Below are positions 3,526 through 3,875 of a stretch of 64,000 nucleotides of DNA, piece by piece; the first letter of the stretch is position 1, and each line of letters opens with the position of its first letter. The notes under the pieces are model-generated. The model saw only the letters and a list, made by a program, of their open reading frames with translations, ran no database searches and had not been told where the DNA came from. This stretch comes from a virus (lineage: Duplodnaviria; Caudoviricetes), in the IMG/VR virus record IMGVR_UViG_643348562_000001, positions 1-64,000 of that record. One strand, given 5' to 3'. Position numbers and translations under genes: made by a program.

Positions 3526-3560
3526 CAAAAAAACACCCATCAAAGGCCACTTGACGAGTG
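3526..3560 (-). terminator. Intrinsic terminator of leftward transcript
   Basis: Minus strand CACTCGTCAA-gtggcct-TTGATGGGTG followed by T7. Confidence 0.75.
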
Positions 3561-3835
3561 CTGCGAAATTGATTGGAAACAAGTTGGTGGCCTCAACTTA
3601 CAACGACTTCACTGGTATCGCGCCCAGTCCTGCACGTTGAATAATTTTCAGTCAAAGTCTAGATGACCAACCACAATCAATAACTTAGATTCCAGTTGTT
3701 CATCATACCTAGTTTACGTCTCTTGTTTGACGATGGAGAGCAACAAATGACTCTCAGAATTTAGACCTAATCATTACAGTTTCACAGGGTAACGTAAAAC
3801 CTCGCATAAGCATGGCATCACGCTCCCTTCGTATA
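3526..3835 (-). ncRNA. Candidate structured ~310-nt RNA
   Basis: Own promoter and intrinsic terminator, only tiny ORFs, several hairpins and two 8-bp long-range stems. Confidence 0.55.
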
Positions 3836-3846
3836 AAGGTAAATAA

Positions 3847-3875
3847 ATTATACATTGAAATATCAATGTAATCAA
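3847..3875 (-). promoter_or_regulatory. Leftward sigmaA promoter overlapped by a palindromic operator
   Basis: Minus strand TTGATT-17-TATAAT; TACATTGA-aata-TCAATGTA at 3851-3870. Confidence 0.75.

Follow-up and report, generated by a model that had tools for sequence, protein, structure and literature searches.

How is a stretch of some 300 nt to be read that lies in the rightward early operon of a prophage, between an antirepressor gene and a gene for a small XRE-family helix-turn-helix (HTH) protein, and that holds only short open reading frames (ORFs)? We address this question for IMG/VR record IMGVR_UViG_643348562_000001, a provirus of 84 kb whose first 64 kb (64,000 nt) are here called the window. 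A first-pass annotation of the window, made from the letters alone, had proposed that the strand opposite to the operon carries a self-contained, structured RNA gene of ~310 nt; the "P1" in its title stands for prophage 1 of a tandem pair, not for coliphage P1. We report that the gene is very probably real and encodes an RNA, that the transcript class is already catalogued in Staphylococcus aureus as srn_9670, of which the window carries a new and very divergent member, and that ~66 base pairs in eleven helices of this RNA are kept by compensatory changes. As to its role, the explanation we lean toward, at somewhat better than even odds, is a lysogen-expressed structured RNA that is repressed by the XRE protein and comes from a two-gene cassette of its own.

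An RNA gene of the srn_9670 class

The sigma-A promoter of the RNA gene (TTGATT-17-TATAAT, 3875..3847, minus strand) keeps its position in all homologues as TTGNNN-17-TATAAT/TATACT. The predicted start lies at ~3840-3841, 6-7 nt past the -10 box, and the 3′ end is a T-run (3527-3533) following a 13-pair hairpin (3562..3532, minus) that a scan recognized as an intrinsic terminator; the gene is convergent with the antirepressor gene ant and ends at 3527, 20 nt beyond the ant stop codon (3507). The region has no excess of promoter-like sites in general (6 versus 13.7 expected); terminator-like sites are enriched (4 versus 0.8). G+C content reaches 0.40 over 3501-3800, compared with 0.30-0.335 in the flanks, and the predicted minus-strand fold has an energy of -94.4 kcal/mol (z = -3.05; 1/100 shuffles as good), while that of the plus strand is no better than shuffles (z = -0.54). 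A self-contained minus-strand gene inside the early operon, as first described, is thus borne out by a conserved promoter, a terminator, a higher G+C content, a strand-specific fold and the shortness of its ORFs.

BLASTN, suggested with the first-pass annotation as a way to find homologues, returned 23 S. aureus phage records, including B236, phiETA, phiNM1, 55, 29, X2 and SP5 (best E = 4e-14, over 3704-3900), in which the right half of the RNA gene is 69-72% identical and a second segment of 52 nt is 79% identical. Direct alignment extends the homology across the whole unit, promoter through terminator. Pattern scans of IMG/VR, of a species genome collection and of metagenomes, followed by an nhmmer pass, yielded 96 full-length copies, which reduce to 34 distinct sequences and to ~11 types at 97% identity, nearly all S. 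aureus-like. Carriers are S. aureus phages (Phietavirus and Dubowvirus) and prophages of S. microti, S. borealis and one further species, and the copies form about six lineages: two S. aureus groups, S. microti, S. borealis, a metagenome contig together with one species genome, and the window. At 57-62% identity to all other copies, the window copy is the most divergent member of the family; its covariance-model score of 203.5 bits carries limited weight, the window being part of the seed alignment. Only 3/113 Staphylococcaceae species genomes carry the RNA, the same three being found by BLAST and by the covariance model, which makes it a sporadic phage accessory element. A third pattern scan of IMG/VR gave two chance matches in coding DNA and no new homologue, the genome-collection scan gave S. 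microti and S. borealis and otherwise chance matches, and the metagenome scan gave five loci, none of them intermediate between the window and the other copies; no copy close to the window's own was found in these three sets. Short matches to the promoter/operator region in other genomes were discarded as AT-rich chance matches.

Expression has been published for the S. aureus homologue. In strain Newman, Bronsard et al. (2017; PMC5496865) described 48 intergenic transcripts as new, among them IGR_2018908, which lies in phiNM1 between NWMN_1811 (minus) and NWMN_1812 (plus) and was named srn_9670. It is by far the most abundant of the 48, with an HTSeq count of 146,395 (next highest, 3,692) and 81,475 fragments per kilobase per million (FPKM) in 6/6 libraries, and it was Northern-positive and mapped by rapid amplification of cDNA ends (RACE) in the lysogen (PMC5496865). 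The Northern probe NB_2018908, the quantitative PCR (qPCR) primer 2019016_F and the RACE primers F1/F2 match the aligned S. aureus copy verbatim and are oriented as they should be for an RNA from the minus strand in phage orientation; we therefore identify the phiNM1 copy as srn_9670. Its Northern probe detects minus-strand RNA at ~260x the antisense count, and a 1,127-nt antisense transcript crosses the RNA gene at low level in Newman (PMC5496865). The 3′ end of srn_9670 abuts the next mRNA, srn_9680. As far as we found, the transcript has remained a catalogue entry since 2017: in the searchable literature we found nothing beyond that paper on the function or further treatment of srn_9670 or its locus tags, the PdpSau paper does not treat the RNA locus, and expression is the one aspect published. 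The family beyond S. aureus, the fold, the pseudoknot, the linkage to XRE and operator, the broken phiNM1 xre and the cassette behavior described below were likewise not found in the searchable literature.

With covariation, the lack of a conserved peptide frame and the detection of the phiNM1 homologue by RNA-seq, Northern blot and RACE, the proposal of a phage-encoded, multi-domain noncoding RNA (ncRNA) expressed in the lysogen gains support. The accompanying statement that it belongs to no known family holds for Rfam 15, where no family matches, and fails for the Staphylococcal Regulatory RNA Database, where the RNA belongs with srn_9670. The window stretch itself was not found in any run recorded as RNA. 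Four runs labelled RNA-Seq yielded one contig of 248 nt (run X3) that lies wholly inside the predicted RNA (3575-3822); the RNA nature of these runs is a guess, contigs show neither strand nor expression, and we do not count it as evidence.

Conserved fold and terminator-loop pairing

Structure was analyzed on 13 representative variants. RNAalifold proposed 80 pairs, 26 of them with compensatory changes, and the fold tested was hand-edited, two ambiguous helices being dropped and a pseudoknot added. In the MAFFT alignment 96.0% of cells are paired versus 89.8% in shuffles, and 27 pairs are changed on both sides versus 12.0 +/- 2.1 (0/500 shuffles); slid controls, in which the 3′ partner is moved by 1-3 columns, keep 32-44% of cells paired and 2-7 double-changed pairs. 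After realignment with the covariance model (R1), which makes the set lean towards that model, 97.3% of cells are paired and 29/66 pairs are double-changed versus 12.2 in shuffles (0/500). The best-supported helices are H4, H6 and the terminator stem (counts in Table 1), H7b (3/4 pairs covary) and a long-range helix between the stretch that follows P1 and the one that precedes the terminator (4/8). The strands of P1 differ between the window and the S. aureus copies with pairing kept, as read directly from the alignment, and the H7 stem becomes AGCUC/GAGCU, AGCAC/GUGCU or GUAC/GUAC in other variants. On the minus strand many of the conserved pairs are G-U; read on the plus strand they would turn into A-C.

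Helices that the first-pass annotation had picked out by eye fared unevenly. Its hairpins GAGAG/CTCTC, ACTGG/CCAGT and AGTTG/CAACT are real, being kept by compensatory changes in the homologues, while GTCA/TGAC falls outside the conserved fold. Two long-range stems of 8 bp are both present in the window (ATTGATTG/CAATCAAT with 8/8 pairs, the other with 7 bp) but neither is conserved in the homologues, and one of them sits in an 11-nt insertion specific to the window; what is conserved instead is the different long-range helix above and a pairing of the terminator loop.

This loop has a perfect 7-nt Watson-Crick complement ~45 nt upstream in 13/13 variants, the chance of such a 7-mer being 0.006 for the window and 0.03 for an S. 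aureus copy. Some S. aureus-type copies pair CCACGAC with GUCGUGG and others CUACGAC with GUCGUAG, a G-C to A-U exchange, and the window pairs wholly different 7-mers, GUGGCCU with AGGCCAC, the upstream word forming the loop of the AGUUG/CAACU hairpin. The alignment points to a putative pseudoknot that would pack the 3′ end of the RNA; alternatively, the same 7-nt pair could be an intermolecular kissing contact.

Sequence is conserved in blocks as well: an 18-nt block and blocks of 8-12 nt are invariant between copies that are only ~60% identical. The window homologue reveals a conserved and elaborately folded RNA, as opposed to transcriptional noise, a leader or a peptide gene. Within the 5′ domain, the invariant hairpin CCUUGC-UUAU-GCGAGG followed by UUUUA (window 3797-3816; B236 3113..3098, minus) resembled a terminator in the scan of B236, and it could be an early attenuator or a protein-binding hairpin.

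The probable XRE cassette and candidate roles

In the phage collection, the RNA and the 62-aa XRE type occur in one and the same set of 24 records. The spacer of the RNA promoter is filled by a palindrome of 18 bp that is the sole match in the 64-kb window at 0 mismatches; in the S. aureus copies this position holds ATAACGA-TATT-TCGTTAT, with symmetric changes in the two half-sites, and the ribosome-binding site of xre abuts the -35 box of the RNA promoter. We infer that an XRE dimer, presumed to sit on the palindrome, should block RNA polymerase at this promoter with its optimal 17-bp spacer. A scan of the window and of B236 found no plus-strand promoter between the early promoter and xre, so that XRE is probably made only by read-through of the early operon; such read-through crosses the RNA gene in antisense, on a strand without a U-tract after the hairpin. 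XRE homologues outside Staphylococcus (e.g., in Geobacillus TP-84) were found to have no adjacent large intergenic region.

The phiNM1 xre (L106, DQ530359; ~3689-3890 of the locus) carries a 4-bp duplication (TCGA) that shifts the frame after ~31 residues, before the recognition helix. A broken xre fits the extreme RNA level in Newman as its cause, which is not proof. The frameshifted gene is unannotated in DQ530359, and xre of phage 8490 may also be shortened (tblastn covers 85%).

RNA and xre appear together in several settings: before the KilAC antirepressor gene ant in S. aureus, before a Bro-N gene in S. borealis, between a DnaD-like replication gene and a dUTPase gene (L072/L137), and after ant in the window. 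In all the contexts examined, xre runs with the early operon and the RNA gene against it. The window cassette is bracketed by an 18-nt repeat (for the left junction, see Table 1), and metagenome contig X1, from a relative, follows ant up to 3510 and then diverges. We propose that RNA and xre make up a mobile cassette of two genes, set into the rightward early operon, and the junctions are consistent with gene-boundary mosaicism via a shared ATGAACAAA start motif. Comparison with the window homologue is what brings out a cassette with its own regulator, the loss of that regulator in phiNM1 and the hopping within the early operon. Contigs of related phages in metagenomes break or begin at the start codons flanking the cassette (X1 at 3510, X4 at 4068). 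In some S. aureus phages, leftward genes with promoters of their own follow the RNA terminator: a membrane protein gene in B236 (L001, 2262-2744) and a gene for an 81-aa protein in phiNM1 (L106, 3002-3247), the latter being the transcript published as srn_9680. On account of such genes, the slot collects accessory genes expressed in the lysogen.

In the model that we favor, no XRE would be made in the lysogen and the RNA would accumulate as a compact, stable molecule. XRE would be produced only when the early operon is read through; it would then bind the single 18-bp palindrome in the spacer and repress the RNA promoter, and during lytic growth this would shut the promoter off and remove both head-on transcription and a 315-nt antisense RNA acting against the early transcript. 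For the part played by XRE, a lysogen-specific stable RNA whose repressor comes from lytic transcription, we judge the case a little stronger than its negation. With its strong head-on promoter and 315 nt of antisense, the RNA gene should also act in cis as a lock that lowers leak-through into the genes beyond the cassette. Given the invariant unpaired blocks and so elaborate a fold, we favor a trans partner in addition: the RNA would most likely act as an RNA, through these blocks, on a partner that could be a protein to be titrated, another phage's transcript or a host target.

Several observations weigh against this explanation or limit its reach. The cassette is followed by genes of more than one kind, so that a specific "antirepressor lock" cannot be general, and repression of the RNA promoter by XRE is read from geometry only. 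The expression data come from the phiNM1 homologue in Newman, and they would apply to the window copy only by homology. The covariation comes from about six independent lineages and much of it opposes the window to the rest, and the shuffle statistics are inflated by relatedness among the copies. Some pairings compete, H7c with H8 plus the pseudoknot, and a local H3 with a long-range pairing that involves the UAGACUUU block, and the invariant unpaired blocks are left unexplained by a role purely as cis antisense. Finally, the published RACE ends (PMC5496865) make srn_9670 384 nt long and put its 5′ end before the predicted -10 box, which does not match the ~306 nt of the promoter-to-terminator unit. 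RACE primer R1 spans the -10 box; the experiment could therefore report only a longer, probably minor species, and we do not take its 5′ end for the start of srn_9670.

A bolder and rather tentative proposal is that the srn_9670 family stands for a structured phage RNA of ~300 nt that forms a class of its own, its multi-junction fold being locked by the terminator-loop pseudoknot or kissing pair. Joined with its dedicated XRE repressor, it would amount to a protein-free "RNA moron" that moves as a cassette and in which the RNA itself is the effector in the lysogen. It might, for example, serve a protein of the host or the phage as decoy or scaffold, or be an RNA-only barrier to superinfecting phages, silenced by XRE when its own phage turns lytic. 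If so, it would add a protein-free module to the accessory functions of prophages in staphylococci.

Less probable, at perhaps one chance in a handful, is a pure cis element, in which leftward transcription and perfect antisense complementarity would lead to transcriptional interference and RNase III cleavage, the structure serving stability or fast pairing as in RNAs of the CopA/RNA I type, with no trans partner. The constant orientation of the RNA against the operon, with xre immediately downstream in the operon direction, speaks for it, as do the read-through expected on a plus strand that lacks a terminator signal at the hairpin, the weak antisense transcript in Newman and the antirepressor-type gene that follows the cassette in many phages. 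Invariant blocks at ~60% overall identity are not required of a cis antisense RNA, however, since its target co-varies automatically, and a multi-junction fold with a pseudoknot is elaborate for mere antisense. In the window, moreover, ant lies upstream of the cassette, not downstream, and the absence of the cassette from a close relative and from most S. aureus siphoviruses indicates that it is not a part of the core switch.

We next consider translation, which would be a very different use of the same transcript. A sense mini-ORF (MLMRGF...) is open in all variants (MLMRGFTLPCETVMIRSKF in the window, LLMRGFKSPCGSIDK in S. aureus) and follows a good Shine-Dalgarno-like GGGAG(G) at 8-9 nt (GGGAGGUGAU in S. 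aureus copies), so a dual-function or coding transcript with the peptide as effector could be imagined. It is improbable: the invariant RNA block accounts for the residues that the peptides share (LMRGF), every other difference is nonsynonymous and falls on a compensatory base-pair change in P1 or in the long-range helix, the stop position varies (14-19 aa), and the Shine-Dalgarno is sequestered in P1 in every predicted fold. Type I toxin-antitoxin systems and peptide-coding small RNAs (sRNAs) were rejected on the same grounds, the mini-ORFs being unconserved beyond the invariant block and, unlike type I toxins, not hydrophobic. A conserved peptide frame in the homologues, which the first-pass annotation had named as a finding that would speak against an RNA gene, was thus looked for in the sense mini-ORF and in the plus-strand ORF and found in neither.

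Least plausible of all, and by a clear distance improbable, is a plus-strand feature, either a small protein gene (the 52-aa ORF of the window, or VLRKFCL... in S. aureus phages) or a long structured xre mRNA leader: an ORF of 38-49 aa is open in the S. aureus-type copies, with hypothetical proteins annotated there in some phage records, and xre does need upstream transcription, but the fold, the G-U pairs and the Northern strand ratio given above all favor the minus strand, codons of the S. aureus ORF differ between lineages nonsynonymously in 9-14 cases and synonymously in 0-3, with no third-position bias (variable sites 16/15/11 by codon position), and its frame is broken in the window by an in-frame stop and by 13 inserted and 4 deleted bases (indels between window and S. 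aureus in the RNA gene: 1, 1, 2, 1, 11, 1, 3, 2 nt). The 52-aa ORF has no Pfam or PHROG match, and its codons 1-5 are a copy of those that open the 71-aa gene at 4072.

Known RNAs and neighboring genes

The nearest known relative remains srn_9670, with which the window copy shares homology over the whole length, including promoter, terminator and all helices, as well as the XRE neighbor and the orientation in the early region. It differs in being ~60% identical and in lying in a distant Staphylococcaceae prophage, in an 11-nt expansion of H6, in another loop-loop 7-mer and another operator half-site, and in that its cassette follows ant, whereas the S. aureus cassette precedes it.

The comparison with Rfam 15 by cmscan, another check proposed at the outset, gave at E <= 10 only snoRNA/U6 noise as best matches for the window (17-20 bits versus gathering scores of 44-50) and, for the B236 copy, RT-6 at 14 bits only. 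ARAGORN found 0 tRNA/tmRNA genes in 3300-4100. Like the present RNA, the ROOL, GOLLD and Staphylococcus-1 motif RNAs are abundant and highly structured, are carried by phages of Firmicutes, have conserved junctions and loops and lack a known partner, but they gave no covariance-model match at E <= 10, and the present RNA, at ~300 nt, does not reach their size and comes with an XRE gene dedicated to it. A type III toxin-antitoxin system (ToxI-like) was rejected, Tandem Repeats Finder detecting no tandem repeats in 3400-4000 and no toxin-like neighbor being conserved.

The sar RNA of P22, which accompanies Mnt/Arc-Ant, and the c4 RNA of P1/P7, which accompanies icd-ant, are immunity-region RNAs of ~70-80 nt that guard antirepressors through defined short pairings on ant mRNA. 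The present RNA is reminiscent of them as a prophage RNA beside antirepressor genes, with a small repressor, a divergent or overlapping control region and an orientation antisense to lytic transcripts. It differs in its length of ~315 nt, its multi-junction fold and invariant loops, the lack of overlap with ant coding sequence, and the occurrence of the cassette also by dUTPase and other genes. A sar- or c4-type RNA was rejected, since by genomic position the RNA overlaps no ant translation-initiation region in the window or in the S. aureus phages; in the latter it lies upstream of xre-ant and overlaps neither gene.

SprY and SprX2 of phi12 are also prophage-encoded S. aureus sRNAs expressed in lysogens, and their combined length is similar, but they are two separate RNAs of ~125-150 nt with known targets (PMC8501977). 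We found no similarity to them, the first 9 kb of phi12 containing only an unrelated match of 34 nt.

Table 1. Coordinates of the RNA gene, its control elements and helices, and the surrounding early region of the window
Feature	Position	Strand	Remarks
ncRNA gene, ~315 nt	3527..3841	minus	promoter/terminator scan, fold z, srn_9670-family homology, covariation
-35 box TTGATT	3870..3875	minus	TTGNNN kept at same position in all homologues
Palindrome ACATTGA-AATA-TCAATGT	3852..3869		perfect 7-4-7; presumed XRE operator, fills RNA promoter spacer
-10 box TATAAT	3847..3852	minus	TATAAT or TATACT kept in all homologues
5′ domain, outer helix P1 around hairpin P1a	3786..3828	minus	18-nt block 3795-3812 invariant in 13/13 variants
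H4, GAGAG/CUCUC stem, conserved 10-nt loop	3736..3755	minus	5/6 pairs double-changed, 100% of cells paired
H5, CGUC/GACG	3717..3732	minus	U-A to C-G exchange in 5 sequences
H6, long hairpin, +11 nt in window	3662..3704	minus	6/9 pairs double-changed after realignment; minimum free energy fold of window
H7, CAACG/CGUUG stem enclosing ACUGG/CCAGU, conserved loop ...CGAUA	3601..3639	minus	alignment, covariation
H8, AGUUG/CAACU, 7-nt loop AGGCCAC (3587-3593)	3582..3598	minus	loop complementary to terminator loop
Terminator hairpin, loop word GUGGCCU (3544-3550)	3532..3562	minus	7/12 stem pairs double-changed
Left cassette junction, motif TAAATGAACAAAYTACAT	3502..3531		repeated at 4066-4096, 87% identity over 30 nt
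52-aa ORF	3508..3666	plus	by-product of junction duplication, not a gene
ImmA-like metalloprotease (IrrE/ImmA type, Peptidase_M78)	1518-2009	minus	
cI-type HTH gene	2016-2351	minus	
Early promoter TTGACA-17-TAAATT	2466-2494	plus	
cro-like HTH gene	2482-2772	plus	
AntA/KilAC antirepressor gene (ant)	2788-3507	plus	
62-aa XRE-family HTH gene	3887-4075	plus	divergent from RNA gene, co-directional with early operon; Pfam HTH_3 E = 1.9e-10
71-aa gene	4072-4287	plus	

The phage in the window is remote from sequenced phages, its terminase alone reaching 76% identity. With the metalloprotease gene directly downstream of the cI-like HTH repressor gene (1518-2351, minus), the main switch of the prophage looks like an ImmR/ImmA pair, and an AntA/KilAC antirepressor is also present in its cro operon. 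The left-end protein of 342 aa (463-1491, minus), at a place where an integrase might be expected, has a SAP domain as its sole match (E = 3.3e-11). Convergent with the xre operon lies a gene for a 90-aa protein (4284-4556, minus) that matches Pfam CRISPR_Cas2 (PF09827; E = 1.5e-6, 28.8 bits versus a cut-off of 23.8 bits) and also PHROG 1090; ORF12 of B236 is of similar size and position.

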